NCBI GenBank assembly: GCA_964106915.2
Contig: OZ066922.1
Source of the DNA: Podarcis gaigeae
Lineage: Eukaryota
Length of the DNA stretch: 64,000 nucleotides
Reading direction: 5' to 3' (one strand)
Positions 26,161 to 60,210 of this stretch are shown piece by piece. Every line of letters starts with the position of its first letter. The stretch's first letter is position 1. A program made the position numbers and the translations under genes. The notes beneath the pieces are model-generated. The model saw only the letters and a list, made by a program, of their open reading frames with translations. It searched no databases and was not told where the DNA came from.

Positions 26161-26239
26161 CTGTTTCTTGTCTCTGCTCCTTGTGGCCGCCGTGGTTTGG
26201 AAGATTAAGCAGAGCTGCTGGGCGTCGCGGCGGAGAGAG
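26161..26239 (+). CDS. ATRN: Attractin coding exon: CFLSLLLVAAVVWKIKQSCWASRRRE, remainder of TM helix and juxtamembrane region
   Basis: tttcag|C acceptor, GAG|gtgggt donor; 79 nt, phase 2 to 0. Confidence 0.96.
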
Positions 26240-28180
26240 GTGGGTCAAAATGACAGAATCACTGCCTTCTTGCTACGATCTGTGAGCTTTTGTGTCTGCT
26301 TCTTGCATGCGTTCTCCTAAGAGGTGCCAAGTACACAATTGAACCAGAGGTCTTGCTTACTGACCGAGGGCTCTGGAAGCCCTCTTGAAATTCCCTATGT
26401 TCTGCAGAAGGCAGCAGAGAGGCATCTGTCTCCTTTTGAGTTAGCTCGGTGGAAGGCAGAAATGGCGTGCGACGCACATTGCTTTTGCAAAAACCCTGCT
26501 GCAAATGTAAAAAAGAAAAAAAGAGGGTCTGACCCTTCTCCTCTTCCTCCTAGTTCCCTGGCACCATGTGGGGTGTGTGGAAGAGACCAGATATTGTTTC
26601 ATCTTGTTTCATCCTGCATTGGAGGGGGTTGGACTAGATGACCCTTGGATCCCCTTCCAATTCTGTGATTCTGTTTGCAGGATTTGGGGGCAGCCAGGAA
26701 GCAGCATGGCTCCCTTCTCTCTGCTCCCCCAAGCCAGCATTAATGCACCACAGTCCATGGCAACCTGCTCTTGCGCCTCACCTGGAAGCCCCAGCTGGTG
26801 CAGAATGCAATGGCTGGACTACTGATGGGAGCAGAGGTCCAGCAACTTGCTAAAATATCTGCGCTGGCTGCTCATATACTAATGGGCCTGGCTGAAGGTT
26901 ACTGCACTGATATACATAGCCCTGAACAACTTGGACCCAGTATACTTTTACGGACTACCTGAACCCTTACCTGAGACCCTATAATCCCATATTAATCCCT
27001 GAAATCATTTGGAGGAGAACAGATGTTCCACATGTTACAGAACCCTCATTGGCCTCAACTGGAGGTTAGGTCCTGCTGTGAAATACATGTCCAATAGATA
27101 TTTAGTAGGCACCCTCGCTTTTGACTTTCAAATGTCTCCTGAACACTTTTTCTTCTCCTCAATGTGACAGCCCGTCTCTTCTGTTGTTATTTGCTTTGTT
27201 CTTGATGGTGCTTTGTGCCTTGTCATTCTTCACCACCCCGATCTTTTATGATGTGCTAATATTTAGAAATACTAAAAATACAGATCCTTGCCTTCCCTGA
27301 GGTCCCTCAGAAAGTAAGATGGAGCCCTCCCCCTCCCAGGGCTCTGTGCATGCCAGAAGACTTCAGGGTAAGTTTATTCAGCAGACCCACTGAAATTGAT
27401 GAACATGTCTTGGATAGGCCCAGTTATTTCAGTGGGTCTGCTGTAAGTAAAAATTAGCTGAATGCCACCAAGAGATTCAAATAAGAGGCAAGAGGAGTAG
27501 TGGTTTCTCATAAAGAATGTTAATAATGGTATTTCAGCAGTGAGGCAAGCAATACAATTGTTATAGGCCCAAGAGATGTCATTTTGTTTTCCATAAGTAG
27601 TTTGAAAAGGCCCACGCATACACCTTATTGAGCAAACTATTCTTTCCTGAGCTTGACTACCTTTCCCTATCTAGTCCATCTAACATATATTGACATGAGC
27701 AGTGACATTTACTCTGGAGCTTGAGTGTTTAAAATATGCAAGTCCTTCTTGCACGGACATATATTTCCTCCTAGGAGTTGTACATTTGTGTGCTTATGTC
27801 ATCTGCTCTGTCCTGCTCCAAAGGCTTGCATGCAACCATGCCCATCCTTAATCAGGAACCTAACTTTGAAAATTCAGAGACCTCAACAGGTTTGTGCCCA
27901 TTCTTTGGGTATTTTTAAGTATAGTATGGAGGACTTAATTGTGAAATAAATTGGCTGAATTTGACAGTGTCAACCTATACCTTAGATGTTCCTATTCAAA
28001 ACACTTTGGCCAAATGGTGGGAAGGAAGGTTGCAAACATTTTTAGATTACCCGTTATCGTGAATGGGCAACACAGAGGTGTGTGTGTATATATATATATA
28101 TGTATGCTTTCGTAGATTTTCACGGGTACAGGAATGCAGGTTTTGGTGTCCTCGGGTGTCTTCCCGTGTAAAAGTTGGGG

Positions 28181-28229
28181 TGTCTAGGCGACGTTTCGAC
28201 GAGGTCTCACTCGTCATCTTCAGGCTGGT
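28181..28229 (-). ncRNA. Minimal hammerhead ribozyme motif (antisense copy in left arm)
   Basis: Reverse complement of 29352-29400. Confidence 0.75.
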
Positions 28230-29351
28230 GCTTTCGGCTTCTTGTTACTGGAACAGAGCGGGATCTCAATGTTTGAGTTCCTATAAATACTGTAGAGGGG
28301 GTGTGGTGTCTAGCCTCCAATGTTCTGGGCAGAGAGGAAGTTCCCAGGCTAGTGTGCCTTTTCTTCTTTTGTTCCTTAATTACTTGAGAGATACCTTGAG
28401 TGATTTCTTGAGTGATATCCTGAGTACCACTTAGGTGGGTCATTAGGTGTGGATTAGTTGCTAAAGTCTTTGTGTCTTGACCTCTTGAACTTTGTGAAGA
28501 GTTTTCCTGAGAAGATGGCTGTATTGCACTTAGTTGTGCTTTGGCTTGGCTTCGTGTATAGGGGCGAGCTGTGGTTTTGTGGCTTGTGTCAGCCAGATCT
28601 GTGTAGGGATTGCAGGGGGGTGCAGCATCCGGAGGTGCCACCATGGATTGGCTACTGGATGGTGTCAGTAATTCATCTGTGGAGAGGGTCTGGGTTTGGG
28701 TCTGGTGTGGTTGATTGGTGTTGGCGTTCTGTGTGCCTCTGGATCTGGTGTCAGTTTTTGTGGAGAGGGCTAATTTCCAGACATCCCGCTTGCCAGACAT
28801 CTGGAAATTAGCCCTCTCCACAAAAACTGACACCAGATCCAGAGGCACACAGAACGCCAACACCAATCAACCACACCAGACCCAAACCCAGACCCTCTCC
28901 ACAGATGAATTACTGACACCATCCAGTAGCCAATCCATGGTGGCACCTCCGGATGCTGCACCCCCCTGCAATCCCTACACAGATCTGGCTGACACAAGCC
29001 ACAAAACCACAGCTCGCCCCTATACACGAAGCCAAGCCAAAGCACAACTAAGTGCAATACAGCCATCTTCTCAGGAAAACTCTTCACAAAGTTCAAGAGG
29101 TCAAGACACAAAGACTTTAGCAACTAATCCACACCTAATGACCCACCTAAGTGGTACTCAGGATATCACTCAAGAAATCACTCAAGGTATCTCTCAAGTA
29201 ATTAAGGAACAAAAGAAGAAAAGGCACACTAGCCTGGGAACTTCCTCTCTGCCCAGAACATTGGAGGCTAGACACCACACCCCCTCTACAGTATTTATAG
29301 GAACTCAAACATTGAGATCCCGCTCTGTTCCAGTAACAAGAAGCCGAAAGC

Positions 29352-29400
29352 ACCAGCCTGAAGATGACGAGTGAGACCTCGTCGAAACGTCGCCTAGACA
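29352..29400 (+). ncRNA. Minimal type I hammerhead ribozyme motif (PLE type)
   Basis: CTGAAGA (29358-29364), T, stem II GACGAG-tgagac-CTCGTC, GAAA (29384-29387), palindromic ACGT helix III, GTC cleavage triplet ending 29391; stem I is weak (2 clear base pairs). Confidence 0.75.
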
Positions 29401-30944
29401 CCCCAACTTTTACACGGGAAGACACCCGAGGACACCAAAACCTGCATATATATGTATGTATATATACACACACAGAGAGAGTTGTTTGGAACCTGAGCAC
29501 AGAGTGATTCAAAACAGATACAATTTTTAAAGACGATAAACAGACATACAAAGCAGAATTTAAAGTTGAGGCGGGCCCGTACTATACCACATCCAAAGGC
29601 AGAATACCCCTGAATAGTTGCACTTGCTAGGGGGCCAACAGAGAAGTGCTATAGCATTCAAGGCCTGTTTGTGGGTTTCTCAGAGGCATTCTATGGACCA
29701 CTGTGGGAAATGGGATGATGGGCCAGATAGGTTTTTGGTCTGATGCAGCAGGGCACCAGCAGCAGGAGACAGACTTTGGGGATAAATGGCCATTGTTTTT
29801 CTCTTTCCCATCTTGACAAGAGTATAAAAAGCAAAGTGAAGGCTTCCTGGAGTTTTTCCTAAATAAAATGTTAATCAGGGTTTATGTTGGATGTAGTCTG
29901 AGAAATACCGCATTCTGCCTGGAGCCAAGTGAGGCATTTAATGATGGCTTAAATGGAAAATGTCACTGGTGTGAAGTTATCCTCTGGGCATACTTTTTTT
30001 TTGAAAGTTGCAGAGAGGATCAGCTGGTATCTTATCTTTCTCACAGTTAGGTTTCTCATACTTGGTTTGCACGCTTTAATTTCAAGTGATAGACAACTTG
30101 TCTGATTTCTAACAAACTGTCCTAAAACTTTATACGGAAGGGATCCTCATAACTTAATAGTGTTGAAGAGTTGCTGTCCAGTGGCGACTTCTTTCTGACC
30201 CGAGTTGTGTATCAGGTCACCTGCTGTCCCTGCTCAACCCCAAAATGATTACTGAGGTCATAACTGCTTCTATGGCTGAATTCAGTTAATTCCTTTCCCA
30301 TCTCCCTGCCTATTGAGATCAAGCAGACTTCACTGTGCTCTTTTTGGTGCCTGGCAAAAACATTCCTATTTAGATAAGCCTACCCAGATGCTTAGAAAGT
30401 ATTTTATATTTTGTATGTTTTAAAGCATGTTTACGAATTTTTCTCAATTTTATTGTTTTATCTTTTTTCAATCCGCTTTGAGGTTTGTTTTTTGCCATCA
30501 AGCAGAGTAGAAATTTTGTGTAATAAATAACAAGTAAATCTAAGAAGCCCCCTATATTGTTGCTGGTATCCTAGGAGAGGGATACATATATGGAAGATAG
30601 GTCAGTGACCCATTTGGGGTCCCTATGACCTAACAGGGAAAGTAGAAATTCACTTTTGCTGGTTTTGGAAGCAACAGAGCTTGCCCAGAACTCTGGAGTG
30701 TTGAAGGACTGTGTGATAGGAATGTTGAGTAAGGTTGTTGAGGCTTGTGCTATTTCTAACAGCTTGAAGAATACTGCAGAAAAATATAGAATGTTATGCT
30801 TTTTTGGGGGGGGGATATTGTTAAAACATTATTTATAGTTGCAATAATTTCTTGTACCTGGCCAGTAGAACATGATGCAAAACACTGAGAGCAGAAGATT
30901 TTGCTCACTCTCAGGTTAGCTGGGACAACTCCATCTGCAGATCA

Positions 30945-31192: not shown

Positions 31193-31331
31193 CAGCCTTT
31201 CTCAACCTGTGGGTCCCCAGATGTTGTTGAACTACAACTCCCCATCACCCCTAGCTAGCAAGGCCAGAGCTCAGGGGTGATGGGAGTTGTAGTCCTACAA
31301 CATCTGGGGACCCACAGGTTGAGAACAGCTG
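31193..31331. mobile_element. Palindromic hAT-type MITE (ACTACAACTCCC family)
   Basis: Near-perfect foldback CAGCCTTTCTCAACCTGTGGGTCCCCAGATG...; related copies at ~54605-54720 and 59975-60240. Confidence 0.85.
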
Positions 31332-33478: not shown

Positions 33479-34077
33479 CAGTGGACGCTCGGGTTGCGAA
33501 CATGATCCATGCTAGATGCATGTTCGCAACCCGCAGCAGTGCGTCTGCTTATGCGCGGGTTGCGACTCGGCACTTCTGTGCATGTGCAAAGCGTGATTTA
33601 GCACTTCTGCGCATGCGCGACCGACGAAACCCGGACGTAACCTGTTCCGGTACTTCCGGGTTTTGGCGTGTCTGTAAAACTGGATGCGGGTGGCGCTGTG
33701 GGTTAAACCACAGAGCCTAGGCCTTGCCGATCAGAAGGTTGGCGGTTCGAATTCCCGTGACGGGGTGAGCTCCCGTTGCTCGGTCCCTGCTCCTGCCAAC
33801 CTAGCAGTTCGAAAGCACATCAAAGTGCAAGTAGATAAATAGATACCGCTCCAGTGGGAAGGTATATGGCGTTTCCATGCGCTGCTCTGGTTCGCCAGAA
33901 GCAGCTTAGTCATGCTGGCCACATGACCCGGAAGCTGTATGCCGGCTCCCTTGGCCAATAAAGCGAGAGGAGCGCCGCAACCCCAGAGTCTGTCAAGACT
34001 GGACCTAATGGTTGGGGGTCCGTTTACCTTTTAACCTGAAAGGCAACCTGAAGCATCTGTGACCCGAGGTATGACTG
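33479..34077. mobile_element. Tc1/mariner MITE containing a Sauria SINE
   Basis: TA|CAGTGGACGCTCGGGT...ACCCGAGGTATGACTG|TA. Confidence 0.8.
33682..34032 (+). mobile_element. Sauria SINE nested in a Tc1/mariner MITE
   Basis: Head GGATGCGGGTGGCGCTGTGG, tail TTTACCTTT. Confidence 0.9.
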
Positions 34078-34079
34078 TA

Positions 34080-34510
34080 ACAACAACAACAACAACTTAT
34101 TTATACCCTGCCCATCTGGCTGGGTTTCCCCAGCCACTCTGGGCGGCTCCCAACAGAATATTAAAAACACAGTACAGCATTCAACATTAAAAACTTCCCT
34201 AAACAGGGCCGCCTTCAGTTGTCTTTTAAAAGTAAAATAGTTGCTTATTGCCTTAACATCTGCTGGGAGGGCGTTCCACAGGGCAGGTGCCGCTACCAAG
34301 AAGGCCCTCTGCCTGGTTCCCTGTAACCTCACTTCTCGCAGCGATGGAACCACCAGAAGGCCCTCGGCGCTGCACCTCAGTGTCCGGGCTGAACGATGGG
34401 GGTGGAGACACTCCTTCAGGTATACAAGACTGAGGCTGTTTAGGGCTTTCAAGGTCAGCACCAACACTCTGAGTTGTGCTTACTGGGTTGTGCATACTGG
34501 GAGCCAATGA
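34080..34510 (-). mobile_element. L2-clade LINE 3' fragment
   Basis: Homologous to 57665-58240; RAFLVAAPALWNALP. Confidence 0.88.
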
Positions 34511-45473: not shown

Positions 45474-45475
<2 letters not shown>

Positions 45476-45585
45476 TTTCGTAGATTTTCACGGGTACAGG
45501 AATGCAGGTTTTGGTGTCCTCGGGTGTCTTCCCGTGTAAAAGTTGGGGTGTCTAGGCGACGTTTCGACGAGGTCTCACTCGTCAT

Positions 45586-45632
45586 CAGCCTGAAGATGAC
45601 GAGTGAGACCTCGTCGAAACGTCGCCTAGACA
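45586..45632 (+). ncRNA. Minimal hammerhead ribozyme motif (fragment B)
   Basis: CTGAAGA 45590-45596, stem II, GAAA 45616-45619, CGTC; 5' flank truncated to CAGC. Confidence 0.7.
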
Positions 45633-45732
45633 CCCCAACTTTTACACGGGAAGACACCCGAGGACACCAAAACCTGCATATATATATGCAGGTTTTGGTG
45701 TCCTCGGGTGTCTTCCCGTGTAAAAGTTGGGG

Positions 45733-45781
45733 TGTCTAGGCGACGTTTCGACGAGGTCTCACTCGTCATCTTCAGGCTGGT
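45733..45781 (-). ncRNA. Minimal hammerhead ribozyme motif (fragment C)
   Basis: Intact core on the minus strand (TCTTCAG at 45769-45775 on +). Confidence 0.7.
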
Positions 45782-46328
45782 GCTTTCGGCTTCTTGTTAC
45801 TGGAACAGAGCGGGATCTCAATGTTTGAGTTCCTATAAATACTGTAGAGGGGGTGTGGTGTCTAGCCTCCAATGTTCTGGGCAGAGAGGAAGTTCCCAGG
45901 CTAGTGTGCCTTTTCTTCTTTTGTTCCTTAATTACTTGAGAGATACCTTGAGTGATTTCTTGAGTGATATCCTGAGTACCACTTAGGTGGGTCATTAGGT
46001 GTGGATTAGTTGCTAAAGTCTTTGTGTCTTGACCTCTTGAACTTTGTGAAGAGTTTTCCTGAGAAGATGGCTGTATTGCACTTAGTTGTGCTTTGGCTTG
46101 GCTTCGTGTATAGGGGCGAGCTGTGGTTTTGTGGCTTGTGTCAGCCAGATCTGTGTAGGGATTGCAGGGGGGTGCAGCATCCGGAGGTGCCACCATGGAT
46201 TGGCTACTGGATGGTGTCAGTAATTCATCTGTGGAGAGGGTCTGGGTTTGGGTCTGGTGTGGTTGATTGGTGTTGGCGTTCTGTGTGCCTCTGGATCTGG
46301 TGTCAGTTTTTGTGGGGAGGGCTAAAGC

Positions 46329-46377
46329 ACCAGCCTGAAGATGACGAGTGAGACCTCGTCAAAACGTCGCCTAGACA
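46329..46377 (+). pseudogene. Hammerhead motif with core mutation GAAA to AAAA (fragment D)
   Basis: CTGAAGA 46335-46341, stem II intact, but 46361 is A where all other copies have the G of GAAA. Confidence 0.7.
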
Positions 46378-46634
46378 CCCCAACTTTTACACGGGAAGAC
46401 ACCCGAGGACACCAAAACCTGCATATATATATATATATATATAAATAAATATATCTATATATCTCAGTATTGCTTGAACTTTCTTTGGCTGCTAGTCTTG
46501 AATTATTCTCTTTCTGGGCACAGAGTGCCAGCCGCCTCTCTTGTTTCCTTGCAACTGTGTGAAAATCCCATGAACGCCCGTGACCCTTGAATATGTCGGG
46601 CTGCCGTATTAACATCTCTCCATTTATTCAACAG

Positions 46635-46742
46635 CAACTGCTCCGAGAGATGCAGCAGATGGCCAGTCGCCCTTTTGCATCCATCAACGTTGCCTTAGAA
46701 ACGGACGAGGAGCCACCCGACCTCGTTGGAGGCAGCGTAAAG
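46635..46742 (+). CDS. ATRN: Attractin coding exon: QLLREMQQMASRPFASINVALETDEEPPDLVGGSVK (MASRPF motif)
   Basis: caacag|CAA acceptor, AAG|gtgagg donor; 108 nt; MASRPF motif shared by ATRN/ATRNL1/MEGF8. Confidence 0.97.
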
Positions 46743-52794: not shown

Positions 52795-53480
52795 CTGTGA
52801 AGGAGAGTCTCTACCCCCATGGTTCAGCCCGGACACTGAGGTCCAGCGGCGAGGGCCTTCTGGCAGTTCCCTCTCTGCAAGAAGCCAAGTTACAGGGAAC
52901 AAGACAGAGGGCCTTCTCGGTAGTGGCACCCGCCCTGTGGAACGCCCTCCCAGTAGATGTCAAAGAGACAAACAACTACCAGACTTTTAGAAAACATCTG
53001 AAGGCATCCCTGTTTAGGGAAGCTTTTAATGTTTGACGGACTACAGTGGTGCCTCGCAAGACGAAATTAATCCGTTCCGCGAGTCTCTTCGTCTTGCGGT
53101 TTTTTCGTCTTGCGAAGCACGGCTATTAGCGGCTTAGCGGCTATTAACGGCTTAGCGGCTATTAACGGCTTAGCGGCTATTAACGGCTTAGCGGCTTAGT
53201 GGCTTTAAGAAAAAGGAAAAAAACTCGCAAGAACTCGCAAGACGTTTCGTCTTGCGAAGCAAGCCCATAGGGAAATTCGTCTAGCGAAGCGACTCAAAAA
53301 CCGAAAAACCCTTTTGTCTTGGGCGTTTTTCGTTTTGCGAGGCATTCGTCTTGCGGGGCACCACTGTATTGTATTTTAATATTTTGTTGGAAACCACCCA
53401 GAGTGGCTGGGGAAACCCAGCCAGATGGGCCGGGTATTAAATACATACATACATACATACATACATACATACATACATAC
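52795..53480 (+). mobile_element. L2-clade LINE 3' fragment interrupted by a MITE, (TACA)n tail
   Basis: RAFSVVAPALWNALP; the 3' UTR resumes after 53368. Confidence 0.88.
53044..53366. mobile_element. Tc1/mariner MITE with internal minisatellite
   Basis: 22-bp TIR CAGTGGTGCCYCGCAAGACGAA, TA TSD; (GGCTTAGCGGCTATTAAC)x3 inside. Confidence 0.9.
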
Positions 53481-56677: not shown

Positions 56678-56792
56678 ACTGTCCCCAAACCCATAGCGCT
56701 GGAGCCCTGTTTTGGCAACAAAGCTGCTGTTCTTTCGGTGTTTGTGAGGTTGCCACGAGGCCTGGGAGGTATCCCCCCACCAGGGCAATCAG
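56678..56792 (+). CDS. ATRN: Attractin coding exon: TVPKPIALEPCFGNKAAVLSVFVRLPRGLGGIPPPGQS
   Basis: cccgcag|ACT acceptor, CAG|gtaagc donor; 115 nt, phase 0 to 1; residues match ATRN rather than ATRNL1 as I recall them. Confidence 0.96.
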
Positions 56793-57479: not shown

Positions 57480-57664
57480 TTAGGATAAGAGTTTTCCTTC
57501 TCCTAGATGGGCTATCTTCCCAGGTTGACGAGCCCCACCTGCCCCTCACTTCCCTCAACAGCATACGCAGAAACCGTTGGAAACGCAATTTAGTCTGGTC
57601 TCTTCACCAAAGCCTGTCTAGGCATGCAAGGGAAGTCTTAACTGCCTGCGGACTGCCTCGCCGG
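57480..57664 (-). mobile_element. Possible RTE-clade 5' UTR fragment
   Basis: Minus strand reads GGGGCTCGTCAACC..CCCATCTAGGAGAAGGAAAACTC, a motif I associate with RTE 5' UTRs; not verified. Confidence 0.35.
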
Positions 57665-58240
57665 AGTGGTGCATGCTCTAGTTATCTCCCGCTTGGACTA
57701 CTGCAATGTGCTGTATGTGGGGCTACCTTTGAAGGTGACCCGGAAACTGCAACTAATCCAGAATGTGGCAGCTAGATTGGTGACTGGGAGCGGCTGCCAG
57801 GACCATATAACACCAGTCCTGAGAGATCTGCATTGGCTCCCAGTACATTTCCGAGCACAATTCAAAGTGTTGGTGCTGACCTTTAAAGCCCTAAATGGCC
57901 TTGGTTCAGTATACCGGAAGGAGCGTCTCCACCCCCATCGTCCAGCCCAGACACTGAGGTCCAACTCCGAGGGCCTTCTGGCGGTTCCCTCATTGCCAGA
58001 AGTGAGGTTACAGGGAACCAGAAAGAGGGCCTTCTCGGTAGTGGCGCCCACCCTGTGGAACGCCCTCCCACCAGATGTCAAGGAAATAAGCAGCTATCCT
58101 ATTTTTAAAAGACATTTGAAGGCAGCCCTGTTTAGGGAAGTTTTTAATATTTAATGCTGTATTGTTTTTAACACTCGATTGGGAGCTGCTCAGAGTTGCT
58201 GGGGAAACTCTGCCAGATGGGTGGGGTATAAATAATAAAT
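57665..58240 (+). mobile_element. L2-clade LINE 3' fragment with open ORF2 end
   Basis: VHALVISRLDYCN..QN.AARLV..HITPVLRDLHWLPV..APTLWNALP..FKRHLK.LF; (AAT)n tail. Confidence 0.9.
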
Positions 58241-60074: not shown

Positions 60075-60210
60075 CAGCCTTTCTCAACCTTGGGTCCACA
60101 GATGCTTTTGGCCTGCAACTCCCATCATCCCTGACGACTGGTCCTGTGAGCTAGGGATCATGGGAGTTGTAGGCCAAAAACATCTGGGGACCCAAGGTTG
60201 AGAACCACTG
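60075..60210. mobile_element. Palindromic hAT MITE inserted into a related MITE (59975-60240) within the putative 3' UTR
   Basis: Perfect 8-bp TSD ATCTGGAG (60067-60074 and 60211-60218); foldback structure. Confidence 0.88.

Follow-up and report, generated by a model that had tools for sequence, protein, structure and literature searches.

A head-to-head palindrome of a Penelope-like element in an ATRN intron of Podarcis gaigeae

The ATRN intron and its two insertions

A stretch of 64,000 nucleotides of Podarcis gaigeae DNA (assembly GCA_964106915.2, contig OZ066922.1; hereafter the window), free of any N, was analyzed around a palindrome that lies in an intron of the attractin gene ATRN and is made of a Penelope-like element (PLE). 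The palindrome is two head-to-head, 5′-truncated 3′ ends of a Penelope/Poseidon-clade element, that is, of its pseudo-long terminal repeat (pLTR). It was confirmed to be real and ordinary in kind, and its earlier reading as a PLE product was supported and refined. The host gene was identified by tblastn with the named Anolis attractin P0170, which placed eight exons in order on the plus strand. The exon at 56678 matched attractins from many vertebrates; a PDB search with an ATRN exon gave 0 hits. The host intron, 26240 to 46634 (20.4 kb), comes after the fourth exon from the end and, assuming 29 exons in the gene, is presumably intron 26. The insert begins at 28106, roughly 1.9 kb past the transmembrane exon, where an earlier note on this DNA (the original prediction) had located it. 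The following features were mapped, with positions relative to the ATG of the element's open reading frame (ORF) where signed:

26161 to 26239, plus strand: ATRN transmembrane exon (tblastn with P0170, 100% over 28 amino acids)
28094 to 28105, unstranded: left copy (12 nt) of a candidate target-site duplication (TSD), within a (GT)n(AT)n(AC)n microsatellite
28106 to 28133, minus strand: 28-nt PLE tail, +85 to +112, on the minus copy alone
28134 to 28781, minus strand: left arm, antisense 5′-truncated pLTR copy with its 5′ end at −564
28782 to 28799, plus strand: 18-nt loop in element sense sequence, which runs on in frame into the tail-less right arm
28800 to 29447, plus strand: right arm, tail-less pLTR copy in sense orientation, its 3′ end at +84
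29446 to 29457, unstranded: right copy (12 nt) of the candidate TSD, its first two bases common to the arm end
46635 to 46742, plus strand: next ATRN exon (tblastn with P0170 and exon-boundary analysis)

A whole-window repeat scan and direct comparison of the arms gave 648 nt each, with 0 mismatches and no indel, in agreement with the arm and loop lengths first proposed. At 0/648 differences the 95% upper bound on arm divergence is 0.46%, which supports the very recent insertion that had been claimed. The ORF translations, described earlier as identical, were so within the arms but differed across the loop. The tail, indeed confined to the minus copy, was measured at 28 nt. As for the predicted flanking TSD, the longest exact match between the flanks was 13 nt; its last G doubles as the last base of the tail and the right-hand first AT doubles as the arm end, so that a 12-nt reading is cleaner. 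As it falls within a microsatellite, this TSD would need an empty allele to count as more than a candidate. Before insertion the site was presumably a (GT)n(AT)n(AC)n tract, which can itself fold as an 18-bp stem. Both the inverted, truncated pLTR structure and the microsatellite target of the original prediction were thus supported. The junction at site 1 coincides with the element's own 5-bp quasi-palindrome (28793-28804), at which a 9-nt direct repeat was created; this repeat would be compatible with annealing and then a short slip.

A second insertion of the same element, 99.8% identical to site 1 and missing from the original prediction, was found in the same intron at 45474-46424. It consists of two head-to-head units with a short AT run between them:

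45474 to 45679, unstranded: site 2 unit a, tailed antisense copy (45474-45586) placed head-to-head against a sense copy that has no tail (45586-45679)
45686 to 46424, unstranded: site 2 unit b, 640-nt tail-less antisense copy and 101-nt sense copy with a 2-nt overlap

Unit a is a small palindrome with an 8-nt loop, and unit b ends about 210 nt upstream of the next ATRN exon (acceptor at 46635). Together with site 1, six segments in three units could be compared. Their 3′ ends lie at +84 in four of six and at +112 in two, and their 5′ ends at −564, −583, and −556 (3/6) or at −1, −10, and −17 (3/6). All six 3′ ends adjoin AT repeats, the two at site 1 pointing outward into (AT)n, and of the window's five (AT)5+ tracts four abut copies of the element; the 12-nt TSD candidate is that of site 1. 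The arrangement is head-to-head in 3/3 units, with the 28-nt tail at one end of two of them, and the junction overlaps are 1, 1, and 2 nt. Junction 1 falls at one of only two quasi-palindromes of the element with arms of at least 5, and junction 2a at a 3-bp one. In both symmetric units (2/2) the loop is continuous with the tail-less arm, the tail being on the opposite arm. At 28817 a T is common to both site-1 arms, while site 2b carries C and P0001 and P0002 encode Pro; the shared T indicates that the two arms derive from one template.

Identity of the element

The coding and ribozyme-like features of site 1 are as follows:

28781 to 29374, plus strand: C-terminal 197 codons of the PLE ORF, comprising the last GIY-YIG residues and a low-complexity tail with three TRS motifs
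28190 to 28223, minus strand: minimal hammerhead motif, left copy, ORF ATG at 28217
29358 to 29391, plus strand: minimal hammerhead motif, right copy, ATG at 29364

The plus-strand frame through the loop (28781-29371) was 196/197 identical to protein P0001 and 79% identical to P0002 over 145 amino acids. P0002 matched RVT_1 (E 4e-16) and, below the Pfam curated cut-off, GIY-YIG, and it contains DKG and YVDD motifs; P0001 matched GIY-YIG, again below the Pfam cut-off. The combination of reverse transcriptase (RT) and GIY-YIG endonuclease in a single ORF was found via these relatives only, the window itself holding the last endonuclease residues. Among named relatives of the element, the closest comes from Podarcis muralis. 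No CxxC zinc-finger pattern was found in the 70 amino acids before the GIY motif of P0001 and P0002. A zinc finger in the linker joining RT to endonuclease is present in Neptune and Nematis, and the endonuclease is not C-terminal in Naiad and Chlamys. A C-terminal endonuclease without linker zinc finger points to the Penelope/Poseidon clade, as judged from pairwise sequence comparison. The PLE identity originally predicted was therefore supported, by ORF relatives with RT and GIY-YIG and by the hammerhead motif, and narrowed to this clade.

The pLTR, of about 670 nt, comprises the 3′ end of the ORF and the first codons of the next unit, in which the ATG at 29364 is followed by 28-38 codons; the ORF tail, of about 190 amino acids, reads through the whole pLTR, and all copies in the window are truncated. 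The ATG-initiated peptide ends in a stretch alignable to P0051, an Anolis protein 47% identical to P0002, over 6 residues only (ENLRKH versus ESLRQH). The ORF stop overlaps the first codons of the next unit within the hammerhead (29364-29374), an end conserved in the 41% identical P0243, and translational coupling in tandem arrays is a possible reading of this overlap. Pfam searches with the arm ORF and with the 38-residue N-terminal peptide returned no family. A phmmer search of this peptide against 121 PLE proteins gave no significant match, and hence no full-length member of the exact family among them. When RT-bearing relatives were compared with the window by tblastn, three long arm segments only and no RT were recovered, and an ESM Atlas search gave no usable match. 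A non-LTR retrozyme was considered and ruled out, the copies being head-to-head with no head-to-tail tandem array in the tandem-repeat scan of the window.

The right hammerhead motif has an intact core, an extra base after position 9, a 6-bp helix II in which the ORF start ATG falls, and a helix I of only about 2 bp. A minimal-hammerhead descriptor gave four intact matches in the window versus 0 in 30 shuffles; when a copy changed at G12 was included, five were found, with 0 expected in 100 shuffles. In that copy, at 46324-46424, hammerhead G12 has become A by a CpG-type change; the six segments show no other clear mutation that followed insertion.

Insertions of this type are documented for PLEs, with head-to-head palindromes, tails on one side, and AT targets all among the published features. 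The element resembles PAc (Poseidon_Ac) of Anolis carolinensis in that the ORF starts within hammerhead helix II, the 3′ end falls some 112 nt inside the ORF, the tail is bounded by two end points, and the target is AT-rich (PMC11167929). The N-terminus of P0051 matches, by eye, the PAc template printed in that paper. The P. gaigeae element is of another family, however: the tail of P0051 has 38 amino acids and no TRS, whereas that of the P. gaigeae family has about 190 and three. Inverted 5′-truncated copies, head-to-head junction palindromes, and an optional tail at one end are likewise known from Adineta vaga Penelope and the general PLE layout, with TSDs of 8-10 bp (PMC3846280, PMC8557442). 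The palindromes described there, however, measure 18-38 bp at the pLTR ends, whereas here the whole insert is palindromic with identical 648-nt arms. With minimal metazoan PLE hammerheads (PMC4209133) the motif has in common the extra base after position 9, G10.1-C11.1, a long helix II, and a palindromic stem III. The same paper describes opposite-strand hammerhead pairs 100-700 bp apart in Schistosoma; here helix I is about 2 bp and the two predicted motifs are 1.1 kb apart.

The C-terminal tail, which in the window occupies 28802-29371 on the plus strand, was surveyed in the 121 PLE proteins (P0001-P0121), of which 107 had a mappable endonuclease end; 65 had tails of at least 30 amino acids, forming 55 clusters. 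TRS occurred in 17/55 tail clusters (shuffle mean 3.4, maximum 10; body windows 1.4) and YxLR in 7/55 (shuffle 0.2, maximum 3), patterns that were picked after viewing the tails of proteins that are related. Tails without TRS numbered 38 of 55, that of the PAc-like P0051 included, and the 41% identical relative has kept two TRS motifs and the same last seven residues. The YxLR wording and a parallel with plant integrase tails belong to general background. Foamy-virus Gag binds the nucleosome acidic patch via Tyr537 and Arg540 (PMC12125541). By analogy with this Tyr/Arg anchor, the TRS/YxLR tails of Poseidon elements may act as a nucleosome tether.

Origin of the inverted structure

The palindrome is interpreted, at a probability of about 0.8, as the non-autonomous product of a recent insertion by a Penelope/Poseidon retrotransposon active in a lizard genome, and as having no selected function. 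As to how it was made, two-strand priming with run-off cDNAs joined at their 5′-truncated ends appears the likeliest mechanism, with roughly an even chance of being correct. In short, an RT/GIY-YIG protein, probably as a dimer, would nick both strands of the AT tract about 12 nt apart, and each nicked 3′ end would prime reverse transcription at one internal start site of the element RNA: +84 would serve one strand and +112 the other, the latter giving the tail. Both cDNAs would extend to much the same 5′ position (near −560 to −580), where the RNA of the donor's upstream pLTR perhaps has its 5′ end. Their 3′ ends would then anneal by a few bases at the element's quasi-palindrome, and fill-in would result in a near-perfect palindrome flanked by a TSD. 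In twin priming of L1, both target strands likewise prime cDNA, and joining by microhomology gives an inverted product. The L1 product differs in consisting of non-overlapping inverted pieces of one RNA, whereas here both arms copy the same stretch, giving a palindrome. The L1 model is mentioned in bioRxiv 10.1101/2024.12.14.628481. Literature searches, with subscription papers outside their scope and absence from print not established, found neither twin priming in Penelope nor a PLE chromatin tether.

Both PMC8557442 and PMC11167929 describe as unresolved the way in which inverted copies and tails arise in PLEs. The same element might have used a single strand: one cDNA or antisense RNA would self-prime by folding back, the endonuclease would resolve the hairpin at an ATT by the tail, and the centre would later be trimmed asymmetrically. 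Such a course is possible, if less probable than two-strand priming. It has precedents in the ascription of head-to-head palindromes to self-priming on an antisense template (PMC3846280) and of the tail to endonuclease resolution (PMC8557442), it is favoured by the location of junctions 1 and 2a at quasi-palindromes, and it accounts for equal arm lengths and for the shared variant at 28817. However, first-strand fold-back predicts loop and tail on the same arm; since both symmetric units show them on opposite arms, an extra central deletion is needed twice. Fold-back of a single cDNA is insufficient alone because it cannot copy a tail that it does not contain, and the opposite positions of loop and tail leave either priming of both target strands or a fold-back product that was later cut and trimmed. 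In PAc, moreover, reverse transcription begins 111-118 nt into the ORF, the tail falls between two start sites, to which it was later linked, both target strands are cut and extended, AT-rich DNA being preferred, and a dimer is predicted (PMC11167929). Two-strand priming was favoured because PAc cuts and extends both strands and is a predicted dimer. The two remaining readings are far less probable. An assembly or read artefact, in which a chimeric long read mirrors one real arm, is unlikely. In its favour, arm identity is perfect, the flanking microsatellite is partly mirrored over about 18 bp, and PLE inverted structures are described as troubling assemblies. Yet beyond the microsatellite the flanks are different unique sequence, whereas in a mirrored read the flank would be mirrored as well, the ATRN exons keep their order on either side, and the one-sided tail, the in-frame element loop, the TSD candidate, and the same architecture at a second site would all be unexpected; differences between the arms could still have been lost in polishing. 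A foldback DNA transposon or miniature inverted-repeat transposable element (MITE), with the arms as terminal inverted repeats, is less probable still. A long perfect inverted repeat with a TSD and short hairpin-type elements nearby (31193-31331, 60081-60204) are what it would lead one to expect, but the arms encode the C-terminus of an RT and GIY-YIG protein, with hammerhead and one-sided tail, and the second site shows variable truncations and no fixed unit. The two short elements, of 125-140 nt, are related to each other, self-complementary, and MITE-like.

Several points weigh against the insertion of a Penelope/Poseidon product by two-strand priming as set out above. It draws on three junctions only, from a single window. 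Unit 2b is asymmetric (640 versus 101 nt) and tail-less at both ends, so that symmetry and tail are not obligatory. PAc gave no sign of a strand difference in start site (PMC11167929), and so nothing yet forces one strand per start site. The tail-less end lies at ATT, the motif that the PAc endonuclease prefers, and equally fits cleavage of a folded-back intermediate. The absence of mismatches could overstate arm identity as a result of polishing or of conversion between the arms, and the tail, at 28 nt, is slightly shorter than the published 30-40. Finally, the hammerhead is at most a putative ribozyme, helix I being about 2 bp and an Rfam scan of 28000-29600 having given no hammerhead match. 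That scan returned 18 matches at E up to 10, all under the gathering score and mostly to generic hairpin microRNA or signal recognition particle models, which were taken as chance.

A wider reading is tentative: the palindromes would be the in vivo footprint of a PLE-specific two-strand integration (dimeric RT-endonuclease, one pLTR RNA, one start site per strand), with the TRS/YxLR tail as a nucleosome acidic-patch tether of Poseidon elements. If true, the loop on the tail-less arm would be readable as a rule in any lizard genome. Two leads thus come from the locus, junction geometry and the tail motif, and as a class young undecayed insertions give a countable prediction (loop owner, tail owner, and 5′ stop points).

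Possible consequences for ATRN and other features of the window

The insert folds as a 655-pair hairpin, so that the double-stranded RNA (dsRNA) of about 650 bp proposed for the pre-mRNA follows from the sequence. The arms should base-pair in ATRN pre-mRNA while the second of them is being transcribed, which would hide the hammerhead and any cryptic splice site, and the hairpin would probably be edited by ADAR, which is plausible, and lost with the intron. The insertion is most likely close to neutral. In the window, 18 inverted pairs of at least 100 nt and at least 80% identity were found, 10 of them with both arms in one inter-exon interval; six of these 10 come from this element and four do not, one of the four lying past the last coding exon. 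Other repeats form inverted pairs whose two arms share an intron, namely 16284-16673/20904-21293 (390 nt, 93%) and 33682-34030/37818-38165 (349 nt, 91%), with arms about 4 kb apart, which could also form dsRNA in ATRN pre-mRNA. Intronic dsRNA is therefore not new to this gene, the PLE stem being the most perfect. The 640-nt antisense part at site 2 could also pair with the right arm of site 1, 16 kb off. Dicer and cytoplasmic sensors should rarely meet an excised intron, an intronic hairpin being nuclear. For this reason, and given the other long inverted pairs, the suggestion of a Dicer or dsRNA-sensor substrate fared poorly. So did that of a cruciform-prone site: a spacer lowers cruciform extrusion, and in eukaryotic cells forks are stalled by inverted Alus whose spacer is 12 bp but not by those with 52 bp (PMC7999016), which makes a lagging-strand hairpin more plausible than a cruciform. 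In lizard genomes, dsRNA and sites that stall replication would naturally arise from an active family that places perfect hairpins in introns.

The insertion could also be a functional hypomorphic allele that disturbs splicing or 3′-end formation after the transmembrane exon, as in mouse mahogany, an improbable reading that has a real precedent. Mouse mg and mg-L are intracisternal A particle (IAP) insertions in Atrn introns 26 and 27 with pigment phenotypes, and the host intron here comes after the fourth-last exon. An AG at 29060-29062 is in phase with the transmembrane exon, and protein P0242 joins TRAX to the family's tail at the matching residue. Yet the IAPs are 5-8 kb long and act via splicing and termination inside the insert, and a poly(A) scan of the gene strand of both inserts found no AATAAA or ATTAAA. 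The pyrimidine fraction before this AG is 0.37, compared with 0.74-0.95 in real acceptors, 86% of 646 intronic YAGs score as high, and the site would be buried in the hairpin stem. While the locus matters little unless an allele effect on ATRN is shown, an allele test is worthwhile because of the pigment phenotypes of the mouse intron 26/27 insertions. In P0242, residues 1-164 of TRAX (TSNAX) are in frame with the last 104 amino acids of the family tail, to which 29060-29374 of the window corresponds, with PSS at the join in both partners; exonisation, an RT template switch, and a gene-model artefact are candidate explanations.

Elsewhere in the window, an imperfect tandem repeat of period 18, with subunits of 8 and 10 nt, occupies 53120-53205. 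Open frames at 57642-58154 (plus strand) and 34024-34479 (minus strand) resemble, by eye, the 3′ ends of reverse transcriptases of long interspersed nuclear elements (LINEs), and a third related LINE-like copy lies near 52799-53034.

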